This document shows positions 1,760 to 30,851 of a stretch of 64,000 nucleotides of DNA, in pieces. Both the position numbers and the translations under genes were made by a program. The stretch comes from Gammaproteobacteria bacterium (GTDB lineage: Bacteria > Pseudomonadota > Gammaproteobacteria > Steroidobacterales > Rariloculaceae): assembly GCA_036381015.1 (NCBI GenBank), contig DASVDR010000015.1:16675-80674 (forward strand), given 5' to 3'. The number at the start of each line of letters is the position of its first letter. The stretch's first letter is position 1. A model generated the notes under the pieces. The model was not told the origin of the DNA. It made no database searches and saw only the letters and a program-made list of their open reading frames with translations.

Positions 1760-3550
1760 CTAGTGGCGAATCTGACTCGTGATGTCGTCGAGCTCGTAGG
1801 CCTGGCAGAAGCCGCGCTCCGAGCCGATCAATCTGGCGCGATCGGAGTCGGCACCGTCACCGCCGGTCGTCAGCAGCACCGGCGTCTGCTCCCAGGGCTG
1901 GAGGAGCACCTGAGGATCCTCCACCCTCACCTCGTAGAGCATCTGATCGCCTTTCCGCGTGAAGCGCTCGACGACTTTCATGTCCTCGGAGTGGAAGAAG
2001 CCGCCCCGCGCGAGCCACGTCGCCGGCGTGAAGCCGACCGATTCGATCACGAGCGTGTCGCCTTCCCAGTGGCCGACGGAATGACCCGTGTACTTGGTCT
2101 GGATGATGTCCCGTTCTTCGAGCTGGCGGCCGTCGGTCGGGATCACGCGGAAGTCCGAATAACCGCCTCCGCCGTCGCCGCCGCGGCCATAGAGCAAGGT
2201 AATGTCCTTCTCCGTATGGAAGATGCGCCCGGGCGCTCCTTGCCGCGGAATCCCCATCGGCTGGCAGGTCATGATCGGATCCATGCGATTCGTCCACATG
2301 TCGCGATAGATGACCTCGTCCCAGTGCTGCGGCAGGTACAGCGGGCGATTCGGGCCGAAACGCGAAGCCGCCTCGAACTCGAAATCGATCGTCTGATTCC
2401 ACTGCGTGCTGCAACCCTCGAGCTGGGTCGGTGCGCAGCGGCGGCTGCCATAGCGCCAGATGAAGAACTTGCTGGGGCCTCTCCAGCTGCCGGTGAGGTC
2501 CGGCTTGCCGTCGGCCAGACGCGGCGTCGGAGCGTCGGAATCGAGAACCGGCGGTTCCTGGTCGCTCCCGAACATCGGCAACGGCTCGGTCGGGCCCACG
2601 CCCGGCGGCACGGGCACGACGACGTAGACGCTGCCGGTTTCCGTCTGGACCGTCCTCAGCTGGCGCATGACTTCGCCGTTCTTGGTCTCCGTCATCGTGC
2701 CGGCCATGTAGACTTCGACTTTATTGAGCGGATTGTTGTAGTCGTCGTAGTCGCCGTAGGTGAACTCGTAGGTATCGCTTCCGTGTGTGACGACGACTGA
2801 TTCCGTCATGAAGCGATCGTCGAGCCGGGCAACGGCCGTCGCGCCTTCGACGCCCGGAATCGGGAACGTGACGACGGGCGTATCGCCGTCCCACGTGACG
2901 GACGTTTTGCCGATCTTCGAAGTCCCTTCCTCGAGCAGGCCGCCGGGGTTGCGAAACACTTTCAGCGGATCGATGCCGGCGCCCGCCAACGCGGCCTTCG
3001 GTGCGCCCTGAGGGCTCGCCCAAAGACGAATCAGGCGTTCGTCGCGTGTGTTCGGCATCGGCTTGGCCGTGCCTCTGCCCGGCACGAGACCGGCGCCCGG
3101 AACGTCTTCGTCCCACGCGTATTCGCCGCTGACGACCTCGATGTTGGAATACGTCTCGCCGTTCGGCAGCGTGCACTCGATCTGGGTGCGGCTGGCGAAG
3201 AATTGGTAAGCATTGCTGATGCGATATCCCGAAGTGCCGAGCTCGCCCTCCCGATCGGTGTTCTCGAACGGGGTGATCTCACAGGGTTGACCGTTTACCT
3301 GGATCGTGCCTTCACCCCGATACTCGAGCGTGACGATGAGCTCGTGCTCCTCGATGCCGCGCAGCATGCCCATGTGCCACGGCCAGTTGAACAGCACCGA
3401 CTTCAGGTCGCGGGCGTCGGGCTCGGGCGTGTAGGCCGGCTCGCGCGGTCCGCCGAACTGTGCGCTTGCCGAGAGCGATACGCCGAGAGCAAGCGGCACT
3501 GACGCGGCGATCGACTTCCTAATGATCCCCCTGTCGAAGGTCATGATCAT
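1760..3550 (-). CDS. secreted hypothetical protein (596 aa), partner of DUF6152 gene
   Basis: Long ORF with signal-peptide-like N-terminus ([18 protein letters not shown]) and a GAAGGGGA Shine-Dalgarno upstream. Natural-looking composition, unlike the overlapping Arg/Ala-rich shadow ORFs. No family recognised. Confidence 0.7.
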
Positions 3551-3580
3551 TCCCCTTCTAATTCTGTTGATGGCCCAGGC

Positions 3581-3973
3581 TTATTCCGGCTCGAACTCGA
3601 TCGTCTGCTGGTTGGGCAACGTGATGGACCGAATGAAGCCGAGAGGCTTGCCGTTGCGTGCTGGGAAATACGTGATCGTGACCGTATCGCCGGCAATGAC
3701 CGTGTTCGGGCCGCCGCGACCGAATCCGAGGCTCGACAGCGCGTTCGCCGAGCCCGTCGTCATAATCCATTCGGTGGTCTTGCCGTCGTCACTCTTCACG
3801 TCGAGGGTGATCGCCCCGTGGGGGTTCACGAACTCGACCTTCTTGACGACGCCCGTCACCTCTCCGGACTTGCGAATGTCGTAGACGCCGGAGAGAGAGT
3901 GATGGGCCAACGCTGCGCCGCTGGCCAGAATCCACGTGGAAAAGATCAGCGTTCCCAAAGTCCTCTTGATCAT
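3581..3973 (-). CDS. DUF6152-like small secreted protein
   Basis: Internal ATG at 3973 (MIKRTLGTLIFSTWILASGAALAHHS...) preceded by GGGGGA. Signal peptide ends in the AHHS motif, and the C-terminal block is GDTVTITYFPARNGKPLGF. A paralogous decayed copy lies at 45406-45789. Family name from memory. Confidence 0.7.
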   Translation of the reverse strand: MIKRTLGTLIFSTWILASGAALAHHSLSGVYDIRKSGEVTGVVKKVEFVNPHGAITLDVKSDDGKTTEWIMTTGSANALSSLGFGRGGPNTVIAGDTVTITYFPARNGKPLGFIRSITLPNQQTIEFEPE

Positions 3974-4184
3974 TTCGATCCCCCAACGAATCAAAGTAAT
4001 CGGCAACTGTCAGGCGCGGGTCGCGGGCTGCTCGGGCAATTCGCCTTTTCGCGACATTACCACCGCGCGGATTCGACGACAATTTGGCGCCGGACCGAGA
4101 CGGACAGGGGCACAGAAAACTTGACAATTCCGGGCCCGAAATAGGAAAAATTGCCGACACTGAACGCTTTGGAGCCGGCAACCG

Positions 4185-16628: not shown

Positions 16629-16955
16629 TCCCCCGTCCCCCTATACTGGATTGGTGTGGCCGACAAACAACATCGCTGAGGCGAGTCTCGTCCGTCCAGT
16701 ATCGTCGCAAAAGTGAGAGAAAAACAACAGGTGCCGGGAGCTGCGACTTGCTCGCTGCGGCAGCTTGGAGGCGCAAGCGACGCCTGTTCCGCCTGGCCGA
16801 TCGACTGCCGCGGCCGATCACACGGGTCTTTTCCCGTGCGGAAACGGCCCGCGAGCAGGCACGCGAGCAATGCGCCATCATTGCCTATGCCGCGCCTCCG
16901 CGGTGGCGGCCGGCCGACGAGCGGCCAGAGTGCGAGAACGAGAAGGAGGATTTCC

Positions 16956-19604
16956 GTGCCGCAAGATTCGAGACGTTTCCTTCGCGCAATCTGCGGCCTG
17001 ATTCTCTCGGCCGCAGCCGGCGCCGGCTTCGCGCAGGCGCCGATCGTCCAGCCGGGCGCCCCGGGCGATCAGAGCCGATTGCTCGGCGCCGAAGAAGCCA
17101 TCGAGCTGGCAAACACGAGCTATACGCGGGCCGACGTGCAGTTCATGCAGGACATGATCCCGCACCATCAGCAGGCCATCGAGATGGCCGCGCTCGTGGC
17201 GGACCGCACGAACCGGCAGGAGCTGCTCGACGCGGCCGCGCGCATCGACGCCTCGCAGGCCGACGAGATCGAGTTCATGCAGAACTGGCTTCGACAGCGC
17301 GGCGAGGACGTGCCGGAGCCGGCCGAGCATCACGCGATGCACACGAGCCGCAAGATGGCCGGCATGGCGTCGCCGGAGCAGATGGCCGCGCTCGCCGCGG
17401 CGCGCGGGACCGAGTTCGACCGCTTGTTCCTCGAGCTGATGATCAAGCACCACGAGGGCGCGGTGACGATGGTCGAGGATCTGCTCGACCAGCCCGGCTC
17501 GGCGTACGAGCCCGCGCTCTTCGAGTTCACGACGGACGTGACGAACGACCAGACCGCGGAGATCGAGCGCATGAGCGCGCTGCTCGCGAGCATTTCCACG
17601 GACCCGCGCGCCGGCTTGGAGGCCGGATTCGAGGATGCGGCCCAGGCGATGCTCAACATGGACCTCGTCGCGTCGCTGCCGAAGCCGCCCGGTTTCTACG
17701 ATCCGGAGAATCCGGCGGGGCTGCCGCCGAAACGTCTGGCGGAGCTCGCCGGCGACGCCGCCCCGAAAGAGACGGGCCGGGAGCGCGCGGCCGGCGGCGA
17801 GGCCCGGGCCGCCGAAGAATCCGCCGCGGCAGCCGTCGCCGACGAGGACGGCGGTGCCGACGAGAACGCCGCCGCGGGCGAGGAAACTGCCGCCGGCGAG
17901 AACGCCGCCGCGGGCGAGAACGCGGCCGCGGGTGACGAAGCCGTCGCCGACACGGAAGCCGATGCCGACACGGAAGCCGATGCCGATGCGGAAGCCGATG
18001 ACGACGAGGAAGACGACGACCGCGGCAACGACCGCCGTCCGCTCCTCACTTTCGCCAATACCGACATCGCGTTCCGCGGCGACGTGATGGTCGTCGGCAA
18101 CTACCACGGCTTCAACATCTATCGCCTCGGCGACGACGGCGTGCCGAAGCTCCTCTCATCCGTCGTTTGCCCGGGCGGGCAGGGCGACGTCTCGATCGTC
18201 GGCGACCTCCTGCTGATGTCCGTCGAGCAGACCCGCGGCCGGATCGACTGCGGGCTCGAAGGCGCCGGCGGCGACGTGAACCCGGAGCGTTTCAGGGGGC
18301 TGCGCATCTTCGACATCAGCGACTTGACCCGGCCCGTGCAAGTGGGCCAGGTGCAGACCTGCCGGGGATCTCATACGCACTCGGTGGTATCGGCCGACGA
18401 CCGCAGAATCGTCGTCTACAACTCCGGCACGTCGAGCGTGCGCGACGAGGAGGAGCTCGAGGGCTGCATCGGAGAGGTGCCGGGCGATACGCGCACGGCC
18501 CTCTTCCGTATCGACGTGATCGAGATCCCGGTCGACGATCCTTCGAAGGCGCGGATCGTCGACAGCCCGGCCGTGTTCGCCGACCCCGAAACGGGCATCC
18601 TCGCCGGTCTCTGGCGCGGCGGCGACCATGGCGAAGACACGCAGGAGACCAATGCAACGGATCAATGTCACGACATCACGGTGTTTCCGGACCTCGACAT
18701 CGCGGCCGGCGCGTGCTCGGGCAACGGGATCGTCTTCGACATCGCCGATCCGCTCCATCCGGAGCGTATCGACGCGGTGATCGACACGGGCTTCGCCTAC
18801 TGGCACTCGGCGACGTTCAACAACGACGGAACCAAGGTGCTCTTCACGGACGAATGGGGCGGCGGCAGCCGGCCGCGCTGCCGTGCGCACGACCCGCTGA
18901 GCTGGGGCGCGGATGCGATCTACGACATCGTCGACGGCAAGCTCGAATACCGCAGCCACTACAAGCTCTCGGCGCCGCAGGCCGACACCGAGAACTGCGT
19001 GGCCCACAACGGCTCGATCGTTCCCGTGCCGGGCCGGGACATCATGGTCCAGGCGTGGTATCAGGGCGGCATCTCGGTGATCGACTTCACCGACTCGGCC
19101 CACCCCGTCGAGATCGCCTTCTTCGACCGCGGCCCGATCGACGAAGAAGAGCTGGTCGTCGGCGGGTTCTGGTCGGCCTACTGGTACAACGGCAGGATCT
19201 ACGCCACCGAGATCGTGCGCGGCATCGACGTGCTTGCGCTTCTGCCGAGCGAATTCCTGACCGAGAACGAGATCGCCGCCGCGGCCGTCGCGGATCAGGG
19301 CCCGGTCTTCAACCCGCAGCAGCAGTTCCGCGTGACCTGGCCGGCCGAGCCGGTCGTGGCGCGCGCCTACATCGACCAGCTTCGGCGGAGCGACGCGCTC
19401 GCGCCGCCGGCGATCGAGGAGCTGATGCGGGCGCTCGACCTTGCCGAATCGCGCATCGAGAGCGGTGCGCGCGACGACGCGCTGGCCGCGAGCCTCGAGT
19501 CCCTGGCGGACGGCCTGGAAGCGGATGACGGCGACGCCGCGGTCGCAAAACGGAAGGCGGGGCTCGCGGAGACGTTGAGCGGCCTGGCCGCGCGGCTCCG
19601 CTGA
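16956..19604 (+). CDS. Tat-exported DUF305 domain / acidic linker / beta-propeller (LVIVD-repeat-like) fusion protein
   Basis: GTG at 16956, 5 nt after AGGAGGA, with twin-arginine signal SRRFLRAICGLILSAAAGAGFAQA. DUF305 blocks FMQDMIPHHQQAIEMA and LMIKHHEGAVTM. Ala/Glu/Asp low-complexity linker. C-terminal ~560 aa with propeller-like repeats. The upstream part of the 963-aa ORF looks non-coding. Confidence 0.75.
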   Translation: MPQDSRRFLRAICGLILSAAAGAGFAQAPIVQPGAPGDQSRLLGAEEAIELANTSYTRADVQFMQDMIPHHQQAIEMAALVADRTNRQELLDAAARIDASQADEIEFMQNWLRQRGEDVPEPAEHHAMHTSRKMAGMASPEQMAALAAARGTEFDRLFLELMIKHHEGAVTMVEDLLDQPGSAYEPALFEFTTDVTNDQTAEIERMSALLASISTDPRAGLEAGFEDAAQAMLNMDLVASLPKPPGFYDPENPAGLPPKRLAELAGDAAPKETGRERAAGGEARAAEESAAAAVADEDGGADENAAAGEETAAGENAAAGENAAAGDEAVADTEADADTEADADAEADDDEEDDDRGNDRRPLLTFANTDIAFRGDVMVVGNYHGFNIYRLGDDGVPKLLSSVVCPGGQGDVSIVGDLLLMSVEQTRGRIDCGLEGAGGDVNPERFRGLRIFDISDLTRPVQVGQVQTCRGSHTHSVVSADDRRIVVYNSGTSSVRDEEELEGCIGEVPGDTRTALFRIDVIEIPVDDPSKARIVDSPAVFADPETGILAGLWRGGDHGEDTQETNATDQCHDITVFPDLDIAAGACSGNGIVFDIADPLHPERIDAVIDTGFAYWHSATFNNDGTKVLFTDEWGGGSRPRCRAHDPLSWGADAIYDIVDGKLEYRSHYKLSAPQADTENCVAHNGSIVPVPGRDIMVQAWYQGGISVIDFTDSAHPVEIAFFDRGPIDEEELVVGGFWSAYWYNGRIYATEIVRGIDVLALLPSEFLTENEIAAAAVADQGPVFNPQQQFRVTWPAEPVVARAYIDQLRRSDALAPPAIEELMRALDLAESRIESGARDDALAASLESLADGLEADDGDAAVAKRKAGLAETLSGLAARLR
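17810..18030 (+). repeat. in-frame acidic low-complexity tandem repeats
   Basis: Encodes ...ENAAAGEETAAGENAAAGENAAAGDEAVADTEADADTEADADAEADDDEEDDD. Short 12-18 bp units are visibly reiterated, e.g. gccgacacggaagccgat twice. Confidence 0.8.
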
Positions 19605-19633
19605 AACCGCTCACGGGCGCGGGGGCCGGAGGG

Positions 19634-20608
19634 TTACTCTCGCACCCGCAGCCGCGCGAGCAGCGCCGGCTCGAGCGGGCGATCGCCGTCGGCGACGACG
19701 TCGAACTCGCCCAACGTCCCGGGCCGGCTCTCGATGCCCTCGAGCTTGAGAGGCTCGCGGCCGCATTCCCGAACCGGGGCCGTGCGCAACTCGCCGCCGG
19801 GCTCGAGCCAGCCGAAGCGGCAGCCGAGCACGGGCCCGTCCGTCAGCGCATCCGGGGAGTCCTCGGCGCAGGCGATGACGGCGATGCGCCCGTCCGCCGT
19901 CGCGGCGGCGTCGGTGAAGCCGAGCGGCGATCCGTCGATTTCACCGAGATCGAAGGGCGTGACGTCGAGCAACGGCGGCGGCGGCCCTCGGCCGTCCAGC
20001 CAACGAACGAAGCCTTCGAGGGCGAGCGCACCGACGGCGTTGACCGGCTCGCGCCCTCCGCGCAGAGCGCCATTACCGCGTTGGAAGAGCAGGAGCCGAT
20101 CGCCGGCCACGACCGCTCCTTCGATGTTCAGCTGCGCGCCCGCGAAGGCGCGCTCTTCGCGAAGGGAACGATAGAGCGCCCCTCCGTCGCGCACGGAAGG
20201 CGGATGTCGGCGCGATACGACGGCAAGCCGCTCGCGCGTGGCGCTTGCACCGGAACCGAACGCCACGAGGCGCTCGTCGGGCAGCAACGCGAGCGCCTCG
20301 AGGTCCATCTTGAGGTGCTTGTTGCCGATGACGTCGTCGAACCTGCGACGCTCGCCGGGGCCTCGCGGCAGCATGATCGGGAAGAGATAGCCGTCCTCGC
20401 GGTCGTAGATCGCGAAAGCGTTCACGTCGTCCTGCACGATCACGAGGTGCCGCGTCAGGCGGCGAACGGCCGATGCCGAGCGCACGTAGGCCGGCAGGTC
20501 GTAATGCGGATCGGGAGGCTTCGTGTACGCGAGCGGTACCACTTCGTCGATGGCGACGTGCATCGACGGATCGAGCCGGGCCGTGACGCGCGGGCGAACG
20601 GCGGTCAC
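19634..20608 (-). CDS. hypothetical protein with propeller-like repeats (324 aa)
   Basis: Full-length ORF with natural composition. Recurring x-[DN]-x-E-[GA] blocks (KMDLEALALL, LNIEGAVV, LKLEGIES) are reminiscent of phytase-like/DUF3616-type propellers. Lies 43 nt downstream of the small peptide gene, same strand. Confidence 0.65.
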   Translation of the reverse strand: MTAVRPRVTARLDPSMHVAIDEVVPLAYTKPPDPHYDLPAYVRSASAVRRLTRHLVIVQDDVNAFAIYDREDGYLFPIMLPRGPGERRRFDDVIGNKHLKMDLEALALLPDERLVAFGSGASATRERLAVVSRRHPPSVRDGGALYRSLREERAFAGAQLNIEGAVVAGDRLLLFQRGNGALRGGREPVNAVGALALEGFVRWLDGRGPPPPLLDVTPFDLGEIDGSPLGFTDAAATADGRIAVIACAEDSPDALTDGPVLGCRFGWLEPGGELRTAPVRECGREPLKLEGIESRPGTLGEFDVVADGDRPLEPALLARLRVRE

Positions 20609-20650
20609 GGCATCGTGCTCGCGCGCGTCATGCCGAGCTCCGGGCCGGCT

Positions 20651-20815
20651 TCAACACCACGCATAGTAGATGAGCGCGGCGGATCCGACGGCCAGCACGA
20701 GCGGCGTCGGGCACAGCGCCATCAATGATAATGTCATGAGCCCGACGTCCGCCTCCGCCTCGGTAAGCTCTCCTCCCGACACGAACTGAAGCTCGGAACA
20801 TGTAAGCTCGCGCAT
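20651..20815 (-). CDS. 54-aa double-glycine-leader peptide (class II microcin/bacteriocin-like precursor)
   Basis: ATG at 20815 with GGAGGAG 5 nt upstream. Peptide MRELTCSELQFVSGG|ELTEAEADVGLMTLSLMALCPTPLVLAVGSAALIYYAWC. The leader matches the MRELxxxELxxVSGG double-glycine consensus. The gene is hidden in the tail of a 130-aa shadow ORF (20651..21043). Confidence 0.55.
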   Translation of the reverse strand: MRELTCSELQFVSGGELTEAEADVGLMTLSLMALCPTPLVLAVGSAALIYYAWC

Positions 20816-21110
20816 CTCGGCTCCTCCATGGATTTGATTCGAGCGCAGCGGGATCGGCCTCGGCAGATGCCCCTCGATCGGCCTCGGGACCGCCGCCGGC
20901 CGACGCCCCGCGCTCGGCCTCCTGATTCGAAGAGCTTGCGCGCTCGTCCGGGGCGGAGTCACCGCTTCATTATCGTCAAAACGCAAGGATTCGGCGCGCG
21001 ATACGCCGTTCATCGGGGCACCGAGATCGTCGCGGCACTTCACACGGCCCCCTTCTCGGGGTAGGTTGGGGCTCTATGAGCGCCGATCCCGATCGGAGAG
21101 TGTGAACCCG

Positions 21111-22670
21111 ATGGCCATGACCAATTCCGCCGCCGTCGAGAAGACCTTCCTCGGTCATCCCCGCGGCCTGTTCGTCCTGTTCTTCGCCGAGATGTGGGAG
21201 CGCTTTTCCTACTACGGGATGCGCGCCTTGCTCATCTTCTACCTGACGCAGCACTGGCTTTTCTCGGACGAGCGCTCGTCGGTCATCTACGGCGCGTACA
21301 CGGCGCTCGTCTACATCACGCCCGTCCTCGGCGGCTACCTCGCCGACCGCTATCTCGGCCAGCGCAAGGCGGTGCTGTTCGGCGCCGTGCTGCTGACCTG
21401 CGGCCATTTCTTGATGGCGGTGGAAGGCTCCGGCGGGCAGACGGACCCGGCGATCAACGTCTTCTGGCTCGCGCTCTCGTTCATCATCGTCGGATCCGGC
21501 TTCCTCAAGGCGAATATTTCGGTGATCGTCGGGCAGCTCTACCCGCGTACCGACGTGCGCCGCGACGGGGCGTACACCATTTTCTATATGGGCATCAACC
21601 TGGGCGCGGCCATCGGCACGATCATCGCGGGATACCTGGGGCAGACGTACGGCTGGCGCTACGGCTTCGGCGCCGCGGGCGTCGGCATGCTCCTCGGCCT
21701 CATCGTCTTCATGTGGGGCAAGCCGCTGCTGATGGGCCAGGGCGAGCCGCGCGATCCGGCCCGCCTCCAATCGCGCGTCGGCGGCATCAAGTTCGAGTGG
21801 CTGCTCTATTTGGTCAGCGTCGGCGCCGTCGGCGGCATTTGGGCGCTCATCCAGTTCCAGGAGGTGGTCGGCTGGCTGCTCGGCATTTTCGGCGTGCTGC
21901 TCGTGATCTACGTCCTCGGATATGCGGTTCTGAAGCTGCCGCACGACGACCGCGACCGGATCTTCGCGGCCATGTTCCTGATCCTGGGCTCGATCCTGTT
22001 CTGGGCGCTGTTCGAGCAGGCGGGATCGTCGCTGAACCTGTTCACCGACCGGTACGTGGATCGCGCCGGCGTTCCCGCGGCCGTGTTCCAGTCGATCAAT
22101 CCGATCTACATCATCCTGTTCGCGCCGGTGTTCGCATGGCTCTGGACGTGGCTCGGGCGGCGAGGCCTCGAGCCCTCCGCGCCGGCGAAGTTCGGGCTGG
22201 CGATGGTGCAGCTCGGCGGCGGATTCCTCGTTCTCGTGGCCGGCGCGTACGCGGTCGGCATCGAGAACGTCACGCCGGTGATCTTCATCTTCCTCATCTA
22301 TCTACTGCACACGACCGGCGAGCTTTGCCTCTCCCCCGTGGGCCTGTCCGCGATGAACCGGCTTGCGCCGGCGCACATGGCAAGCCTGATCATGGGCACC
22401 TGGTTCTTCGCCTCGGCCACCGGTAACTTTGCCGCCGGCTTGATCGCGGCGGCGACAGGCGCCGAGAAGGCGGGCGAGGGCGCCGCCAAGGAAGTCGTGC
22501 TCGACGTCTATACGACGGTGGGCTGGGTGGCCGTCGCGACCGGCATCGGCGTCATGCTCGTCGCGCCGTTCATCCGGCGGCTGATGCACCTCGAGACGCT
22601 CCGCGACCACGAGCCCGAGGAAGCGATCGCCGGCCGGCGCGAGCTGGCGGCGCCGGGCGCCCAAGCCTGA
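21111..22670 (+). CDS. POT/PTR2 family proton-dependent oligopeptide transporter
   Basis: About 519 aa. PTR2 signature region ERFSYYGMRALLIFYL and GGYLADRYLGQRKAV, with about 14 hydrophobic segments. The start at 21111 (MAMTNS) is preferred over 21066. Confidence 0.9.
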   Translation: MAMTNSAAVEKTFLGHPRGLFVLFFAEMWERFSYYGMRALLIFYLTQHWLFSDERSSVIYGAYTALVYITPVLGGYLADRYLGQRKAVLFGAVLLTCGHFLMAVEGSGGQTDPAINVFWLALSFIIVGSGFLKANISVIVGQLYPRTDVRRDGAYTIFYMGINLGAAIGTIIAGYLGQTYGWRYGFGAAGVGMLLGLIVFMWGKPLLMGQGEPRDPARLQSRVGGIKFEWLLYLVSVGAVGGIWALIQFQEVVGWLLGIFGVLLVIYVLGYAVLKLPHDDRDRIFAAMFLILGSILFWALFEQAGSSLNLFTDRYVDRAGVPAAVFQSINPIYIILFAPVFAWLWTWLGRRGLEPSAPAKFGLAMVQLGGGFLVLVAGAYAVGIENVTPVIFIFLIYLLHTTGELCLSPVGLSAMNRLAPAHMASLIMGTWFFASATGNFAAGLIAAATGAEKAGEGAAKEVVLDVYTTVGWVAVATGIGVMLVAPFIRRLMHLETLRDHEPEEAIAGRRELAAPGAQA

Positions 22671-22843: not shown

Positions 22844-23860
22844 CTATTGCTGCCCCTGCCCCTGCCCCTGCTCGGGCGACGGCTGCGCTTGGGCCGGGCC
22901 TCCCGGGCTCGACAGGTCGGACCGCATCGTCAGCACGATCGTCTCGCTGTGCTCGACCATCGAATCGCCGCGGTTCAGCAGCTCCTCCGCGGCCTGTTGA
23001 CCCATCGAGGTATAGAGCGGCATCGGCTCATCGAGCGCCGCCCAGCCCCCCTCGAGCGGAACGGCGAAGACCCACGTGCGATCCTCGGCGCCGAACATCA
23101 TCTCGTTGGCGACGACACCGAGCAGATCCGCTTCGCGAAGCGCCGGCATGAGCTCGTCACGCAGCCACGTCTGGTATTCCTGGCGTTTGCCGGGCAACAA
23201 GGTCTGCGTCACGAGAATCATCAGCTGCGGCGTCTCGGTGCTCGGCTGGCCTTGCGGCATGATCGACAGGTCGGGATGCACCTGCGCGACGGCCACCTCG
23301 TGAGAATCGATCGTGGCTTGGATTCGGTTGATCCAGGCGGCCCACTCCTCCGGCGGCATCGGCGGGTTCTCGGCCATCTCGGCCAGCTCCGCGAACGACG
23401 GAATCTGCGAGACGATGTGGTACGTGTCCTGGTCGCCGATCGCCACCTGCCATACCGTGAACCCGGGCGCACCCTGCTCGCGAAGCGCCTCGCCGAGCTC
23501 CTTCAAGAGATCCTCGAATTCCTGCATCCGCTCGCCCTTGACGCGAATGACTCTGACCTCGTTCAGCATCATCGGTGCAGCCTGCCCCGGCGTTTCGCCC
23601 GGCGCCGCGGCGAGCGCCACGTCTTCCTCTTGCTGACTCTGCTGCCCTTGCTGCTGTTGCTGCCCTTGCTGTGGCTGGCCTTGCTGTTGTTGCCCCTGCT
23701 GTTGCTGCTGCGCTTGCTGCTCTTGCTCCTGCTGTTGCTGCAGCGCTTGCTGCTCTTGCCCCTCTTGCTGGCTCGACGCGACAAGCGGAATCGACAGCAT
23801 GGCCAGGCTGATCACGGAGGGTACGAAAGCCCGTTGCACGCCCGTTCGTTGGAGTTCCAT
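22844..23860 (-). CDS. secreted Gln-rich protein of unknown function
   Basis: ATG at 23860 (MELQRTGVQRAFVPSVISLAMLSIPLVASS) with AGGGGA upstream. A ~50-aa Q/E/G low-complexity tract is followed by two similar ~100-aa alpha/beta-looking halves. The C-terminus is QGQGQGQQ. Confidence 0.65.
   Translation of the reverse strand: MELQRTGVQRAFVPSVISLAMLSIPLVASSQQEGQEQQALQQQQEQEQQAQQQQQGQQQQGQPQQGQQQQQGQQSQQEEDVALAAAPGETPGQAAPMMLNEVRVIRVKGERMQEFEDLLKELGEALREQGAPGFTVWQVAIGDQDTYHIVSQIPSFAELAEMAENPPMPPEEWAAWINRIQATIDSHEVAVAQVHPDLSIMPQGQPSTETPQLMILVTQTLLPGKRQEYQTWLRDELMPALREADLLGVVANEMMFGAEDRTWVFAVPLEGGWAALDEPMPLYTSMGQQAAEELLNRGDSMVEHSETIVLTMRSDLSSPGGPAQAQPSPEQGQGQGQQ
23621..23775 (-). repeat. CAG/CAA-rich in-frame low-complexity repeat
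   Basis: Plus strand shows reiterated ctgctgttgctgc / cttgctgc units. They encode QQEGQEQQALQQQQEQEQQAQQQQQGQQQQGQPQQGQQQQQGQQSQQ. Confidence 0.8.
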
Positions 23861-24129
23861 CGCGCTGTCCCCTATGAAGACGCCGCTGCCGTCTTGCGAA
23901 GCTCGAAGCAGACGGCGACAAGGATGAATGGATAGTGAGAAGAGCTTCGGCAACCCGGCCGTCTCGGGCCCTTCGAGCAGGCCGAACGGTCACTCGAAGG
24001 AACGAGGACCCGTGGGCTTTCCGCCCCCGCCTTTCGACGGGTTTGGCTTTATCGTCGATGCAGATTACGCCGGTTCAGAGCAGCGAACAACATATCGCGA
24101 GTGCGACGTTCACCTAATCAATAGCAATT

Positions 24130-25267: not shown

Positions 25268-25471
25268 CGTTCTTCCCCCTAAACGTCGGTGCCGCTCGAG
25301 GAGCGCCGCAACCGGTGCCGATCGGGGCCGAGGGTACAGCAGGCGCTGCGTGCCGCAAAGCGGGCGTCTGCGATGGGGCCGCGACGAGCGCGCTTCGCCT
25401 CCGGGAACATGTCTCGCTGGGCATCGCCCCGGGTTGGGAAAGACCCGCTCCGGTTTGCTACATTGGCGCTC

Positions 25472-26566
25472 ATGTCGGCTCGGCTCGTCCGTTGCGGAAT
25501 CCTCGCGTGCTCGACGCTCGCCGGGCTCGTGCTCGCACGCGGTGCGAGCGCGCAGACGCTGAGGCTCGATCGGCTGCCGGTCGAGCGACTCGCCGTCACG
25601 GCGCCGTCCGAGCGCGTGACGGGCGAGCCCGGCCGAATGCAGATCGCCGCCGCAGCATGCCCGAGCTACGACGAAGCGAGCCTCCGCCGGCGCATCGTCG
25701 ACATCGCCGTGCAGGAATGGGGGTTCTTCGGTTTCAACGTCGTGAACGAAACCGTCGTCGACGACGATGGCGAGCGGGATCGCCGCTGGTCGTGGCGCCG
25801 CCTCTCGCGGCTCGATCCGGCGGAATCGGCCCGCGTCGCCGGCTCGATCGCCGGCTACTGGTCGGCGACGCCCGACGGCAGCTGGATTTTGAGCAGACAG
25901 AACGAGATCTGGAACGATGCCGGCATCGGGGCCCGGTGGCGGGATCCGTGGTCCGCGGCATTCATCTCGTGGGTGATGTGCGAAAGCGGGCTCGGGAGCG
26001 AGGATCGGTTTCGCCGCCACATTGCGCACCATGTCTACATCGATCAAGCCATCGAAGCGCGCGACGATCCTGATTCGCTCGCGGCATTCGTCGCGTACGA
26101 CGTCGGCGAGCTTGTGCTCGAGCCGGGCGACATGGTCTGTCGCGCGCGCCGCGGCGCTTATCGGTCGATCGCCGAGCGGCGCGCCGATATCGGCGTCGGC
26201 GTGCGTTCACACTGCGACATCGTCGTCGAGGTCGATGCCGACCGGAATCGCATCCTCGCAATCGGCGGCAACGTGCGCGGCCGGGTGAGCTTGAAGCTGC
26301 TGCCGGCGACGTTCGAGCGCCGCGGAGGGGGACCGCTCGCGACATCGATCGGGCGCGGTCGCCGCGCCATCTTCGCGCACCTGAAGCTGCGCGCTCCTCC
26401 GATCGAGGCCGACGCGTTCGAGAGCACGCCGACGATGGCAGCACTGTCCGAACGCACCGCTCAATTCGCCGCTCTCGAGCAGCGGTTGGACGGGGAGACG
26501 CCGCTCCGGGCAGGTGCGCCGGTAGAAACCTCCTTGTCGGGAGGCTCCGCTCCGGCATCTCCTTGA
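25472..26566 (+). CDS. DUF2272 domain-containing secreted protein
   Basis: ATG at 25472 (MSARLVRCGILACSTLAGLVLARGASAQ). Blocks VQEWGFFG, PWSAAFISWVM, HCDIVVEV, ILAIGGNV fit my memory of DUF2272. Confidence 0.7.
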   Translation: MSARLVRCGILACSTLAGLVLARGASAQTLRLDRLPVERLAVTAPSERVTGEPGRMQIAAAACPSYDEASLRRRIVDIAVQEWGFFGFNVVNETVVDDDGERDRRWSWRRLSRLDPAESARVAGSIAGYWSATPDGSWILSRQNEIWNDAGIGARWRDPWSAAFISWVMCESGLGSEDRFRRHIAHHVYIDQAIEARDDPDSLAAFVAYDVGELVLEPGDMVCRARRGAYRSIAERRADIGVGVRSHCDIVVEVDADRNRILAIGGNVRGRVSLKLLPATFERRGGGPLATSIGRGRRAIFAHLKLRAPPIEADAFESTPTMAALSERTAQFAALEQRLDGETPLRAGAPVETSLSGGSAPASP

Positions 26567-26600: not shown

Positions 26601-29600
26601 CTACTGCGCGGCTTTGCGGGCCCAAAGCCCGCCGTGCGCGAAGCTCCGCCACGCCCAAGGCAGCCAGCGCAGCAACGCGAAGCTGAGCCACAGCGCCCAC
26701 GCGAGCATCGCCGCTTTGTAGAACCACTGCGACACGGAGAGGGCGCCGGCGTCCGGCGTGAGCCCGGCCGTGCGGTCGACGAACCAGCTGAGCCCGCCCG
26801 CAACCGGCGACACGATGTGCATGTCCGGCGCGCCGAGCAGGCCTACCGGAATAGCGCCGACGAGCGCGACGAGGGCGGCGACGGTGAGCACGCCGAGCGC
26901 GACCTGCATCGCGTTGAAGCGGCCGCGCGAGCGCGGGCCTTCCACGCGGCCGCGCGCGCTCATCGCGAACGCCCAGATCGCGAAGAGCAGGAGCACCGGC
27001 CACGCGAACGTGGAGAGACCGACGCCGAGCAGCAGCCATTCATGAGTGCGCAGCGGGCTCGCCGCGAGCCGCCCCAGCACGAGCGCGCCGAGCACGAGCG
27101 CGACGAGCTCCGGCCAGTAAAGGATCGCCGGGCCGAGCCGCGGCCCGAGCGCGAGGAGCACCCACCGGTCCTGCGGCAAATCGAGCCGCGTCTCGATGTT
27201 GCTCGCGCCGCCGCCGAGATCGACGACCGGCACGCTCGTCCACACGCCGACGCCCGTCGGCTCGCGCCATTCGATTTCGGCGTCGTGCTCGCCGGGCGTG
27301 ACCGGGATGCCGAGCATGCGCCCTTCGAGCTCGAGCGGCACCGGGTCGCCGTCGATCCAAACGCTGTCGAGCTCGCTGCCTTCCGGCAACGTGATCACGT
27401 GCTGGCCGCCGCGCGTCGTGCGATACGTGATCTCGAGCGTGGAATTCGAGACGCGCGCACCCACGTCGCGCTCGTAGTTGACGGTGTCGATCGCGATCGT
27501 GTCGCCGCTCGCGGGCTCGGGGCGCCGGAGCGCGACGGTCAGCGTCTCGCCCGGCCGCGGGTCGTATTCCGGCGTGTAGAGCGAAGGGTCCGGATCGAGA
27601 GGTGCGGCCGACGGCAGCCCCATGTACTCCGCGTGCCAGATCGGCCCGACCTCGAAGAGCCACCGCTCGGTCCACGGCGCATCGGCGCCGGCCGCGGTCA
27701 GCGTCAACGTCTGCGCCGTCGGCAGCCGCGATTCCCAAACCACCGTGTCCTCGCCGTCGGCGAAAGCGACCGTCGCGCGGCCGCCGGCCGCTTCGATCCC
27801 CGGTGTCAGCACGGCCTCGTTCGGAAGCAGCGCGACCGAAAGCGTGAAGGCGCCGGACTCCGGCGCGACGCGCGTGACGGTCGTCCTGACCCGCCAGTCG
27901 AGATCGAACACGAGGCGCCGCTCGACGTCGACGTACGGCGCGATGATCGTGCCGCCGAGCTCGCCTTCGTCGCCGTCGCCGTCTTCGGGTTGGCGGGTCA
28001 GCTCGAGCGCGCCGGAGAGCAGGCGTCCGTCGGCGACGCCGGCGACGTTCCAGTCGGGAGCGTCCACGGCGATGCGGCGCGGCCGCAGCGGGAACGGCAG
28101 CGTGACGCCGTTCCCGGGCGGCACGGGACCGCGGAGCGTCACGCGGTGCACGCCGGCCGGCGCGGAGAGCCACGCGGTTTGGCCGCGGTCGCGGTAGAGG
28201 GAGCCGACGGGATCGCCGTCGACGGCGATCTCGAACGGGCGCCAGCCGCCGGGCGCGCCCGGCACGGGCACGGCCGAGGGCGCTTGCAGCGCGAGATCGA
28301 GCTCGACCGTCAGCACGTCGTCGACGACCGCGACGCGCGCGGCCGTCGCGTCGGCGCAAGCCGGGCGGCACGCCGCGGGCGCGGTCAGCCGCTGCTTCAG
28401 CTCCTCGAGCAGCGCCGGCGCCGGGAACTCGCCGGGCGCGATCTGCGCGGGAGAAGGCGAAGGCAGCGCGAGCGCGGCGACGGCGAGCAAGGCCGCGCTC
28501 GACGTGCCGCGCAGCCATCGACGCGGCACCGGGCCCGGTCGGCCGGAGAGGAGCCACAGCAGCGCGAGCGCGAGAGCGACGCTCGCGACGCGCCACAGCG
28601 CGACGAGCCATGGGCCGATCGTCACGAGGCGAAACGTCTGCCCGGCGTCGACCGGGCCGCCGAACGAGAGCGTATGGCGGGTCCACGCCCAGTCCGGAAG
28701 GCCGGGGCCGGTCTGCACGAGCGCGCCGGGCTGATAGCGCGTGAGCTCGCCGCGGATGATGCGGCTGGCGGTGACGGTTATCTCGTCGACCGCCGACGGC
28801 GCGGCCGCCGATCCCGCCGCGGCCCGCTCTCGAGCCAGGGACAACGCGTCGCCGCCGACGGCGGCGATGTCCTCGGCCGTCGTCAGGCCGCGCTCGAGCC
28901 TCGTCCGCTCGAGCTGCGGATACAGCGCGTTGCGCAGCTGCACGGTCGTGAACGGAATCAGCAGCAGCACGACGGCCGCGACGCTGAGCCGGCGATACCA
29001 GCGCGCGGCGGAGCCGAGACGGCCTTCCGAGGGTGCGACGCGCACGAGCGCGATCGCGACGAGCAGGTTCAGCCACGTCCACCGCGGCGCGTTCGGCTCG
29101 TGAAACGCGATCACGAGCGCGAGCAGCGCGACGATCCCCGCGGCGGGTCCGAAGAGTCTCCAGGCCGCGGCGCCGACGATCAGCAGGAGGAAAACGTCGA
29201 GAAGGCGCCAGCGCTCGAGCCATACGGTCGGCGCACGATCGGCGCCGAGCGCCGCGAGCACGCGGTAGCCGGGCGGGACGTGCACGGTCGTCGTGACGTC
29301 GTCGAACGCGGAGCGATAGCCGGTGACCGGCAGCCGTCCCGCGTTCGGCAAGCGGGCCGTCGCCGTGAGGTCGATCGCCTGCGAGCGAAGCTCGACGCCC
29401 TGGAGCCCCGGCTCCGTGCCGAGCGTCACGAGCAAGGGCTCGTCGTCGACGGACGCCATCGTCATCGTGTACGGCGCGGCCATGTCGAGCCGCCACTCGC
29501 TCCACATTCGGCCGTCGATCCGGTCGCGGGCGGTGAAGCCGCCGCCGTCGAAGTCGAGCCACAGGTCGCGCCGCAAGACGAGCCGATTCGCCTGCGCCGC

Positions 29601-30620
29601 ATCGGTGCGGCTGCGCTCGACGACGGCGATCGGCTGCTCGGCGGCGACGCGGTAGCTCGCGAGATCGCGCCATTCGGGCGGCACGCCGCTGCGCTCGGCG
29701 TCGACCGGTTCCGCGCCTTCGAGCGCGGCGACGCGCAAGCGCGGCTCGGGCCTGAAGCTCCAGATCTCGTCCGGGGGCCAGGGCGCGACGACGGCCTCTC
29801 GCGTCACGGATTCGACGGGCGCGGGCGCCCGCGCCCGCAACGTGATCTCCCACCGGCCCGGCCGAATCTGCACGCGCAGCACGCCGTCCGCGTTCCATTG
29901 CACGGGCAGCTCGGACTCGACGTGCTCCGGGACGAAGCCCGCGACGGCCGCGCCGGTGAGCGCGAGCTCGCGCCGCTGCCCGGCGATGTCGAGCTCGATG
30001 CGCGTCGTGAGACGCATCGGCAGCGTGTCGCTCAAGAGGCGATGGACGATGACGTCGAGCCTGTCTTCCTCGGCTTCCGCATCCGGGCGAAGGCCGAGCC
30101 ACAGCGTACCGCCGTCGATCTCCGGCCGCGCGACCTCCTCGCCGTCGAGCGTGAGGGTCACGAGCCCCGTCTCGGGAGGAATCGCGAGCGACGCCGGGCG
30201 CACGGCGAACCCGATCTCGCCCTCGATGCGATAGGTGCCCGCGGGGAGCCGCAGGGCGGGCCGGCCGTCGCGCGCGACGACGGGCCGAGCGCTGCCGTCG
30301 ACCGTGACGCCGCTCGGCCAATGCTCCGCGTCGCCCGGCAGCGGCACCCACTCCTCTGAATAGAGCGTCCACGTTTGCGAGAAGCGCGCGCTTTCCGTGT
30401 CGACGGTGAGGCTCAGCGGGCCGGGCCAAGCGCAGATGTGGCTCGCCGTCTCGCCGGGCATGCGACCGTTGAGCACGGGGCAGTCGCGGAACTCTTCGCC
30501 GTAGAGGACCCAGTCGCGCCATGGCGCGAGCGGCTCGGGCACGTCGACATCCTGGCCTCTAGCCGCGGAAAGCACGCCGAGCAATGCAATGAGCGCGGCG
30601 ACGGTTGGCGATCGGCGCAT
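26601..30620 (-). CDS. very large membrane protein of unknown function (1339 aa)
   Basis: ATG at 30620 (MRRSPTVAALIALLGVLSAARGQ). Long soluble beta-rich regions are interrupted by hydrophobic clusters near aa 520-600 and 690-740, plus a C-terminal bundle. Both antisense and offset ORFs here are Arg-rich shadows. Confidence 0.75.
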   Translation of the reverse strand: MRRSPTVAALIALLGVLSAARGQDVDVPEPLAPWRDWVLYGEEFRDCPVLNGRMPGETASHICAWPGPLSLTVDTESARFSQTWTLYSEEWVPLPGDAEHWPSGVTVDGSARPVVARDGRPALRLPAGTYRIEGEIGFAVRPASLAIPPETGLVTLTLDGEEVARPEIDGGTLWLGLRPDAEAEEDRLDVIVHRLLSDTLPMRLTTRIELDIAGQRRELALTGAAVAGFVPEHVESELPVQWNADGVLRVQIRPGRWEITLRARAPAPVESVTREAVVAPWPPDEIWSFRPEPRLRVAALEGAEPVDAERSGVPPEWRDLASYRVAAEQPIAVVERSRTDAAQANRLVLRRDLWLDFDGGGFTARDRIDGRMWSEWRLDMAAPYTMTMASVDDEPLLVTLGTEPGLQGVELRSQAIDLTATARLPNAGRLPVTGYRSAFDDVTTTVHVPPGYRVLAALGADRAPTVWLERWRLLDVFLLLIVGAAAWRLFGPAAGIVALLALVIAFHEPNAPRWTWLNLLVAIALVRVAPSEGRLGSAARWYRRLSVAAVVLLLIPFTTVQLRNALYPQLERTRLERGLTTAEDIAAVGGDALSLARERAAAGSAAAPSAVDEITVTASRIIRGELTRYQPGALVQTGPGLPDWAWTRHTLSFGGPVDAGQTFRLVTIGPWLVALWRVASVALALALLWLLSGRPGPVPRRWLRGTSSAALLAVAALALPSPSPAQIAPGEFPAPALLEELKQRLTAPAACRPACADATAARVAVVDDVLTVELDLALQAPSAVPVPGAPGGWRPFEIAVDGDPVGSLYRDRGQTAWLSAPAGVHRVTLRGPVPPGNGVTLPFPLRPRRIAVDAPDWNVAGVADGRLLSGALELTRQPEDGDGDEGELGGTIIAPYVDVERRLVFDLDWRVRTTVTRVAPESGAFTLSVALLPNEAVLTPGIEAAGGRATVAFADGEDTVVWESRLPTAQTLTLTAAGADAPWTERWLFEVGPIWHAEYMGLPSAAPLDPDPSLYTPEYDPRPGETLTVALRRPEPASGDTIAIDTVNYERDVGARVSNSTLEITYRTTRGGQHVITLPEGSELDSVWIDGDPVPLELEGRMLGIPVTPGEHDAEIEWREPTGVGVWTSVPVVDLGGGASNIETRLDLPQDRWVLLALGPRLGPAILYWPELVALVLGALVLGRLAASPLRTHEWLLLGVGLSTFAWPVLLLFAIWAFAMSARGRVEGPRSRGRFNAMQVALGVLTVAALVALVGAIPVGLLGAPDMHIVSPVAGGLSWFVDRTAGLTPDAGALSVSQWFYKAAMLAWALWLSFALLRWLPWAWRSFAHGGLWARKAAQ

Positions 30621-30851
30621 GGTCGGCCCTCTGTTGGTCGTCGAGGCCAGGCGCGTTCGGCCGCCTGATCGCTCGTTCGTTCCCGGTTGCGGCAGGATGC
30701 TAAGGCGCGTGCGGGAGGCGCACAACCGCGGCCGTCGCGGTCTCGCGCCCGCCCGCAAGCGCGCTCGGGAACGTTCGCTCCCTCGTCCGGCTCTTCAAAG
30801 GCCGGCGCCCGCTCCTTATGATCGGCAGCGGGAGACACTCGAGGTACCGCT

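Follow-up and report, generated by a model that had tools for sequence, protein, structure and literature searches.

A small gene on the minus strand (20651-20815) of a 64-kb stretch of gammaproteobacterial DNA, contig DASVDR010000015.1, referred to as a whole as the window, is genuine and encodes a ribosomal precursor peptide. Comparison of the translated product with its relatives assigns it to an unnamed family of double-glycine-leader peptides, one that is distinguished by an invariable rhomboid partner and by an old satellite clade that lives apart from the exporter and includes the window copy. The product is most likely a microcin-like, membrane-active peptide that is processed in trans, by an exporter whose gene lies in another part of the genome, a reading that we hold with reasonable though incomplete confidence. 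Almost all documented class II microcin-type peptides come from Enterobacteriaceae (PMC10233263), and this work adds a conserved and unnamed peptide family from uncultured environmental Gammaproteobacteria.

A Precursor Gene with a Double-Glycine Leader

The preliminary description of this DNA, made from the letters alone, had proposed a 54-residue open reading frame (ORF) with a strong Shine-Dalgarno sequence, and both are where it placed them. The gene consists of 54 codons followed by TGA, its translation is MRELTCSELQFVSGGELTEAEADVGLMTLSLMALCPTPLVLAVGSAALIYYAWC, and GGAGGAG (20821..20827, minus strand) lies 5 nt 5' of the ATG. The same description considered the gene to be masked by a 130-aa "shadow" ORF and easy to miss. 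The longer ORF results from extending this frame to an upstream GTG, and the extension has no coding signature, with a GC content of 0.70, 0.59, and 0.71 at codon positions 1, 2, and 3, respectively. The 54-aa protein is already present in public gene calls, however, which makes the gene less hidden than had been thought. The 54-aa part itself is coding-like, with a GC content at third codon positions (GC3) of 0.76 overall and 0.82 in the core and a codon log-likelihood that is positive against all five other frames, and the coding signature begins at the ATG. A strict leader pattern (hydrophobic residues at -15, -12, -7, and -4, Glu at -8, G[GAS] at -2/-1, a start codon no more than 10 residues away, and 25-80 residues after) matched once in the six-frame translation of the window, compared with 0.015 matches expected from 200 third-order Markov simulations. 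No paralogue of the peptide was found within the 64 kb.

The leader spans codons 1-15 (20771..20815, minus strand) and reads MRELTCSELQFVSGG. It satisfies the double-glycine pattern, which calls for a leader of ~15-18 aa with hydrophobic residues at -4, -7, and -12 (and -15), usually Glu at -8, and a GG, GA, or GS ending, through M(-15), L(-12), E(-8), L(-7), V(-4), G(-2), and G(-1), and the same positions are conserved in an alignment of 39 relatives. Cleavage is predicted after Gly15, which would release a 39-aa core (codons 16-54; 20654..20770, minus strand) of 4100.8 Da with a grand average of hydropathy (GRAVY) of 1.12, a computed isoelectric point of ~4, and four acidic and zero basic residues. 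This core joins a variable acidic head, ELTEAEADVGLM, to a conserved hydrophobic tail, TLSLMALCPTPLVLAVGSAALIYYAWC, with YYAWC at the C-terminus. A disulfide between the two Cys residues of the window core, C35 and C54, is possible and would lower the average mass of 4100.8 Da by ~2 Da, but conservation in the family does not extend to the second of them. An AlphaFold2 model with a moderate predicted local distance difference test score (pLDDT 74) contains a helix in the leader (residues 6-13), a break at the GG, a second helix (19-34), a kink at C35-P36-T37, and a third helix (38-53), and the 15-residue leader probably forms a short amphipathic helix.

A word-indexed homologue search with the peptide alone as the query returned the window's own sequence only. 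Relatives were found by other routes. A back-translated DNA-pattern scan of GTDB genomes identified a 58%-identical homologue in a metagenome-assembled genome (MAG) of an uncultured gammaproteobacterium, at a locus designated L004, and an exhaustive HMMER search covered 1.84 billion representatives. Of its 7 matches at E <= 0.001, five are homologous peptides at full length (51-71 aa), one is a truncated homologue, and one is a protein of 1614 aa. Profile searching assembled ~40 homologous clusters of 51-57 aa from gammaproteobacterial MAGs and metagenomes. The locus search alignment A1 was too diverse for the metagenome scan, and a narrower alignment yielded 3 loci. One Logan contig (L003) is identical to positions 18987-21205 of the window and is not counted as independent evidence. 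Sample SRR25158368 contains the identical locus. A profile search of PDB sequences gave no match below E = 1.

The aligned family has the consensus MRELTxxELxAVSGG-xLSxxEAAxxTxGLMALxxTPLVIGVGxAALLYYAWC. Its invariant residues include M1, E8, V12, T28, P38, G44, A47, L48, and Y51, all of which are retained in the window peptide. The hydrophobic tail carries an invariant Pro, a C-terminal YYAWC is usual, most members end in Cys, and GRAVY values for the core are 1.1-1.4. At every family locus inspected, GGAGG, GAAGGGA, or AAGGAG precedes the equivalent ATG by 5-9 nt. Conservation of the small ORF had been proposed as a check on it, and the ~40 homologous clusters, in the same ATG register and with a Shine-Dalgarno sequence, indicate that the gene is real and under selection. 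The window gene is one member of a conserved, unnamed double-glycine-leader peptide family of uncultured Gammaproteobacteria.

Canonical Loci with an Exporter and a Rhomboid

Most copies of the family are encoded beside a dedicated exporter and a rhomboid protease, as at eight distinct loci that we call canonical: L004, L005 (identical to L006 and L007), L008 (identical to L009), L010 (identical to L011), L012, L014, L015, and L016. In all eight, the peptide gene is downstream of a gene for a transporter with Peptidase_C39, ABC_membrane, and ABC_tran domains, a peptidase-containing ATP-binding cassette (ABC) transporter (PCAT). The PCAT gene is either immediately upstream of the peptide gene or separated from it only by genes for an acyl carrier protein (ACP) and a DsbA-NhaA protein. 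The three domains of the L004 transporter match at E values of 1e-35, 3e-39, and 1e-29, respectively, its C-motif QTEAAECGLACLAMI and its H-motif HFVVL are both present, the PCAT looks active, and PCAT identity across species is ~78%. Directly 3' of the peptide, again at eight of eight loci, is a gene for a rhomboid-family protein of ~335 aa. The WR, HxxxN, GxSxG, and GH motifs are all invariant in these proteins, which therefore look catalytically competent as far as motifs can tell. An HlyD-type adaptor (TIGR01843, E 2e-41) is divergently transcribed a few kb upstream in L004, L005, L008, and L014, the loci whose contigs reach far enough for it to be detected. In several species, the whole cluster is flanked by sdhCD/ygfZ on one side and eamA-lysS-prfB-recJ on the other.

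The adjacency of canonical peptides to a C39-peptidase exporter supports the double-glycine-leader reading. The preliminary description had proposed a leader of the type processed by such exporters on the basis of the window peptide by itself, and that proposal is upheld by a leader kept in ~40 homologous clusters and an exporter at every canonical locus. For a lone ORF with a double-glycine leader, locating relatives next to their exporter can serve as validation.

Additional genes and a conserved DNA element accompany the canonical peptides. In L008 (3263-9913), as well as in L004, L005, L014, and L015, genes for a serine hydrolase of the class C beta-lactamase fold, a FadD-like acyl-CoA synthetase (AMP-binding), and a major facilitator superfamily (MFS) protein lie upstream of the PCAT gene, and the start and stop codons of this run overlap those of the PCAT gene. 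Between PCAT and peptide, L010, L012, and L016 encode a small PP-binding (ACP-like) protein, joined in L012 by a thioredoxin/DsbA-NhaA fusion. The presence of acyl-activating, ACP-like, and hydrolase genes hints at acylation or other modification of the peptide or of lipids. The DNA element, TCCGTCGA(A)ACCAAGGAGGGT, is conserved ~15-35 nt upstream of the peptide ATG in L004, L005, L008, L010, L012, and L014-L016 and may serve in regulation or processing within the spacer between PCAT and peptide. It does not occur at the satellite loci described below, which share ribosome-binding sites of the type (A)TGGAAGGGA instead.

A Satellite Clade Apart from the Exporter

The window copy belongs to a second group, in which neither a PCAT nor a rhomboid is adjacent to the peptide. 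Besides the window, these satellite loci are L013 (peptide P0156), L017 (P0153), L018 (P0152), L019/L020 (P0124), and L021/L022 (P0151), and their neighbors differ from one locus to the next. A neighbor-joining tree built on ~52 columns places the six context-checked satellites in one clade with P0148, P0149, P0150, and P0154, and all of the context-checked canonical peptides fall outside this clade. Two MAGs carry both kinds of locus: in GCA_964518995.1, canonical L004 and satellite L017 lie on contigs 21 and 82, respectively, and GCA_035760685.1 combines canonical L012 with satellite L013.

Comparison by region shows where the two groups diverge. Mean pairwise identity in the leader (residues 1-15) is 0.65 among satellites, 0.76 among canonical peptides, and 0.68 between the groups. 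The corresponding values are 0.20, 0.53, and 0.13 for the head that follows the GG (16-27) and 0.75, 0.71, and 0.65 for the hydrophobic tail (28-54). The satellite clade keeps M1, L4, E8, a hydrophobic residue at position 9, V12, G14, and a Gly or Ser at position 15 throughout. Retention of the leader while the adjacent head has diverged this far argues for continued selection on the leader and thus for a leader that is still used.

Traces of shared gene order connect some of the satellite loci. In L019/L020, the gene that is divergent from the peptide is a homologue of the window DUF2272 gene (25289-26566, plus strand), and the window genes for a 596-aa and a 141-aa protein (1760-4006, minus strand) match genes that adjoin the peptide in L017 (3560-5780, minus strand). 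With such remnant synteny, the satellite clade looks old and vertically inherited and not like a recent mobile insertion. A search for repeats and mobile-element marks around the window peptide gene returned short matches at chance level and no mobile element. GC content and tetranucleotide frequencies did not discriminate when used to assign the window to a MAG with a canonical locus: the correlations are all 0.95-0.99, and the GC content is 0.665 in the window versus 0.705 in the two canonical contigs from the same sample.

Two further observations concern the satellite loci. The gene pair common to the window and L017 encodes a 583-596-aa protein without a Pfam match and a ~131-141-aa protein (DUF6152 in L017), and it adjoins the satellite peptide in L017 and lies ~17 kb from the peptide in the window. 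At the P0124 locus, a gene for a 77-aa TM2-domain membrane protein (L019, 889-1122, plus strand) follows the peptide after 266 nt and is a possible immunity candidate. It is the only small membrane-protein gene seen beside a satellite copy and has no counterpart in the window.

Proposed Mechanism and Alternatives

In the scheme that we favor, a cognate PCAT is predicted elsewhere in this genome, and its C39 domain would recognize the 15-residue leader. The PCAT would then cut after Gly15 and export the 39-residue core of ~4.1 kDa through a type I secretion assembly that combines the PCAT with an adaptor and an outer-membrane channel, in the manner of microcin V. After release, the core would act in membranes by means of its variable acidic head and its conserved, Pro-kinked hydrophobic tail ending in YYAWC. 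Such a product would most likely be a class II microcin-like antagonistic peptide, for which antibacterial activity would be expected. At canonical loci, where the rhomboid takes the place of the usual small immunity protein, this protein may cut mis-inserted peptide within the conserved tail and so protect the producer, or it may take part in maturation.

Processing in trans has precedents. PctB of Xanthomonas oryzae partly substitutes for RaxB on the unlinked RaxX (bioRxiv 10.1101/442517), and the pneumococcal transporters ComAB and BlpAB are reported to share substrate pools (PMC6016807). The window gene would be a concrete case of a substrate encoded far from its exporter, a kind of peptide that adjacency-based genome-mining pipelines would miss. 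Relatives of the window peptide show weak matches to several bacteriocin models: Pfam MccV (PF17508) with 21 of 39 (best E 7e-4), TIGR03949 bact_IIb_cerein with 20 of 39 (best E 2e-5), Pfam Bacteriocin_IIc (PF10439) with 15 of 39 (best E 2e-3), and TIGR01847 bacteriocin_sig with 12 of 39 (best E 0.011). In the test against the two Pfam models, the L004 peptide reached 18.3 bits versus a gathering cut-off of 27. The Joint Genome Institute annotation of P0137 names the lactobin A/cerein 7B family.

Several observations weigh against this interpretation. No PCAT, ABC ATPase, HlyD adaptor, or rhomboid was detected in the 64-kb window, part of a 178-kb contig, by tblastn and by a Pfam survey of neighboring genes, which agrees with the earlier report of no exporter or HlyD-type partner there, and no small immunity-like ORF lies beside the window peptide. 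The window peptide also reaches none of the curated bacteriocin models. It gave no match to MccV or Bacteriocin_IIc at E <= 1 and none to TIGR01847, the signal-sequence model that the preliminary description had put forward as a check, and among NCBIfam models it matched only the VP1 pheromone model (NF033772), at E 0.11, in the leader region only, and with 12.7 bits versus a cut-off of 85. The predicted core is lighter than the ~5-10 kDa quoted for mature class II microcins (PMC10233263), which in the IIa type bear no modification other than disulfides. The canonical and satellite contigs of the two MAGs that hold both could have come from different organisms and been co-binned. Bacteriocins tend to be accessory and to diversify quickly. 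A canonical cluster that sits amid core genes (sdhCD, ygfZ ... lysS, prfB, recJ) and is conserved across species, together with a highly conserved tail, is unusual for a bacteriocin and hints at a non-antagonistic role.

A more ambitious model, which we consider rather unlikely, is that of a lineage-wide core-genome system. The rhomboid, an intramembrane protease in place of a small immunity protein, would be the obligate partner of PCAT-exported peptides, acting on the Pro-kinked tail either in immunity by cleavage or in maturation, and a clade of satellites that split off anciently, with hypervariable acidic heads and the window gene as one member, would be served in trans. The substrates of such a PCAT-rhomboid system would be distributed, and there may be a connection to the acyl-activating, ACP, and serine-hydrolase genes of the same operon.

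Among the competing explanations, the one that survives best, although we regard it as rather unlikely, is a non-antagonistic role in which the family peptides are exported or membrane-inserted rhomboid substrates, whether a processed membrane peptide or a signal, in lineage-wide physiology and the satellite is an extra substrate with a different head. It draws on the conserved position of the canonical cluster between core genes and the level of PCAT identity already mentioned, on a rhomboid that is always immediately downstream with its catalytic motifs intact, and on the overlap of the beta-lactamase-fold, acyl-CoA-synthetase-like, and MFS genes with the ends of the PCAT gene. Rhomboids cut helix-destabilized transmembrane segments, and the strongly conserved tail has its invariant Pro flanked by small residues. 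Against such a role, no receptor kinase or regulator was seen in the canonical cluster, the very hydrophobic core would make a poor diffusible signal, and the similarity that exists, though weak, is to bacteriocin models.

The satellite might also supply the second peptide of a class IIb-like, two-peptide bacteriocin and be active only with the canonical peptide of the same genome, which we consider improbable. Each of the two MAGs noted above has a single canonical and a single satellite copy, half of the family weakly matches the lactobin A/cerein 7B model, and small-xxx-small motifs occur in the tails. The genes of two-peptide bacteriocins are normally adjacent and co-transcribed, though, and here the canonical and satellite genes are on different contigs. 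The TIGR03949 matches are weak even at best and absent for the window peptide, and copy numbers per genome are known for those two MAGs only.

Very improbable, in our estimate, is an unexported small protein of the inner membrane whose GG motif is, in the satellites, an unused ancestral relic. The lack of a nearby exporter would fit such a protein, as would a hydrophobic tail that could anchor it in the membrane and possible co-transcription with an unrelated cytoplasmic propeller protein, but the satellite leader positions are kept next to a head at 20% identity, the mark of continued selection on the leader. A chance ORF or decaying pseudogene is effectively refuted: high-GC genomes do yield many spurious ORFs, and one match to the strict motif is expected per ~4 Mb by extrapolation, but ~40 homologous clusters share the length, start, and Shine-Dalgarno sequence, every family-invariant residue is retained, and codon usage is coding-like.

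Surroundings of the Window Gene

The peptide gene is followed on the same strand by a gene for a 324-aa protein (19634..20608, minus strand), with a spacer of 42 nt (20609..20650, minus strand) where the preliminary description had counted 43. A terminator scan of this spacer found no terminator-like hairpin, and its fold does not exceed shuffled sequences in stability (z = 0.89). Without a terminator, co-transcription is likely, and the two genes are probably co-transcribed in what would be an incidental arrangement. The 324-aa protein matches DUF6929 and DUF6910 (Pfam E 1.8e-51 and 1.1e-50), looks cytoplasmic, and has > 1100 homologues. Its AlphaFold2 model (pLDDT 94.6) is a beta-propeller, in agreement with the propeller-like repeats that had been read from its sequence, and the matches to NHL, Kelch, and lactonase propellers are generic, with TM-scores of 0.4-0.5.

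The recurrence of this gene pair had been suggested as something to look for, and it does not recur. The nearest DUF6929 genes (75-77% identity), those of the two closest homologues, are preceded by a gene for a zinc-finger-like 305-aa protein or for a glyoxalase, with no ORF bearing a double-glycine leader, and a DUF6929 gene is absent from all the other satellite loci. This lack of synteny among relatives and satellites argues that the 324-aa protein is not the partner of the peptide and provides context only.

On the other side, a POT transporter gene is divergent from the peptide gene (21066..22670, plus strand), as the preliminary description had it and as the Pfam survey identifies it. 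The intergenic region between them (20816..21065) presumably holds the promoter or promoters. It contains no sigma-70 consensus match and no Rfam family.

Other features of the window were recorded in passing. A c-di-GMP-I-GGC riboswitch aptamer (RF03167) at 23945-24056 on the minus strand scores 64.1 bits against a gathering score of 59 (E 7.7e-13) and lies directly upstream of a 369-aa Gln-rich ORF without a Pfam match (22844-23953, minus strand), which suggests cyclic di-GMP control of a protein that is probably secreted or of low complexity. Where the GC content of the window peaks (0.71-0.75), a 1385-aa ORF (26601-30758, minus strand) shows a strong coding signature, with a GC3 of 0.91, yet matches no Pfam family at E <= 1e-5. 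A 963-aa ORF (16713-19604, plus strand) combines an N-terminal DUF305 domain (E 1.3e-45) with a large C-terminal region that weakly matches the LVIVD repeat, and its linker is acidic and of low complexity (AAGENAAAGENAAAGDE..., DTEADADTEADADAEADDDEEDDD). Finally, the GC content falls to 0.58-0.59 between 46001 and 50000, versus ~0.66 window-wide, and this segment may be horizontally acquired DNA.

Comparison with Known Systems

A class II microcin locus of the IIa type comprises a pre-microcin, an adjacent small immunity protein, a PCAT, a membrane fusion protein (MFP), and TolC (PMC10233263). Of these five parts, the window has the peptide only, and the canonical loci have the PCAT and the adaptor with a rhomboid where the immunity protein would be. 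Microcin V (CvaC, with CvaA/CvaB/TolC and Cvi) offers the clearest parallels: a ribosomal precursor with a 15-18-aa leader that ends in GG; a hydrophobic, anionic, Gly/Ala-rich core; family members that adjoin a C39-peptidase ABC transporter with an HlyD-type adaptor nearby; and relatives that weakly match MccV. The differences are equally apparent. The core is 4.1 kDa, a rhomboid of ~335 aa replaces the small immunity gene, and the window has no gene in the immunity position and no exporter linked to its copy. The family occurs in uncultured environmental Gammaproteobacteria instead of Enterobacteriaceae, and the canonical locus is set among chromosomal core genes.

Two Gram-positive groups share some of these features. 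The lactobin A/cerein 7B family (TIGR03949) likewise pairs a double-glycine leader with a Gly-rich hydrophobic core, but the window peptide does not match its model, the partners of two-peptide members are normally encoded by adjacent genes, and the hosts are Firmicutes. In Streptococcus pneumoniae, the unlinked double-glycine peptides BriC and VP1 are exported by ComAB/BlpAB. This is a likeness in arrangement, with small peptides encoded away from the PCATs that export them and transporters that are reported to share substrate pools (PMC6016807), and VP1 is the sole curated model that touches the window peptide. The similarity to BriC and VP1 is confined to the leader, however, and theirs are Gram-positive hosts with no adaptor or outer-membrane step and hydrophilic signals accompanied by regulators.

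Because rhombosortase is the best-matching model of the rhomboid, the GlyGly-CTERM/rhombosortase system was also considered, and it was rejected. In that system, a larger secreted protein ends in a sorting signal whose GG motif runs straight into a transmembrane helix and a basic tail, and a rhombosortase (TIGR03902) is the partner. The family rhomboid reaches 47.3 bits where the rhombosortase cut-off is 84, the GG is split from the hydrophobic helix by an acidic head of ~12 residues, the YYAWC end lacks basic residues, and the peptide totals 54 aa.

Taken together, these comparisons suggest a peptide that would work like a class II microcin or another double-glycine peptide of Gram-negative type I secretion, and that, on the features compared, belongs to none of the named families. 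The closest described locus is pctA-pctP-pctB of X. oryzae, which encodes a PCAT (PctB), a rhomboid-family protease (PctP), and an HlyD-type adaptor (PctA), with putative GG-leader peptides nearby (bioRxiv 10.1101/442517). The shared features are the combination of PCAT, rhomboid, HlyD-type adaptor, and GG-leader peptide and the action of PctB in trans on RaxX. The arrangement differs, since the X. oryzae rhomboid is upstream of the PCAT and the rhomboid here is downstream of the peptide, and the candidate X. oryzae peptides, compared by description only, are 75 and 92 aa with longer leaders. The pairing of PCAT and rhomboid was noted in Xanthomonas and never explained, and the invariable rhomboid partner of the present family provides a testable handle on it.

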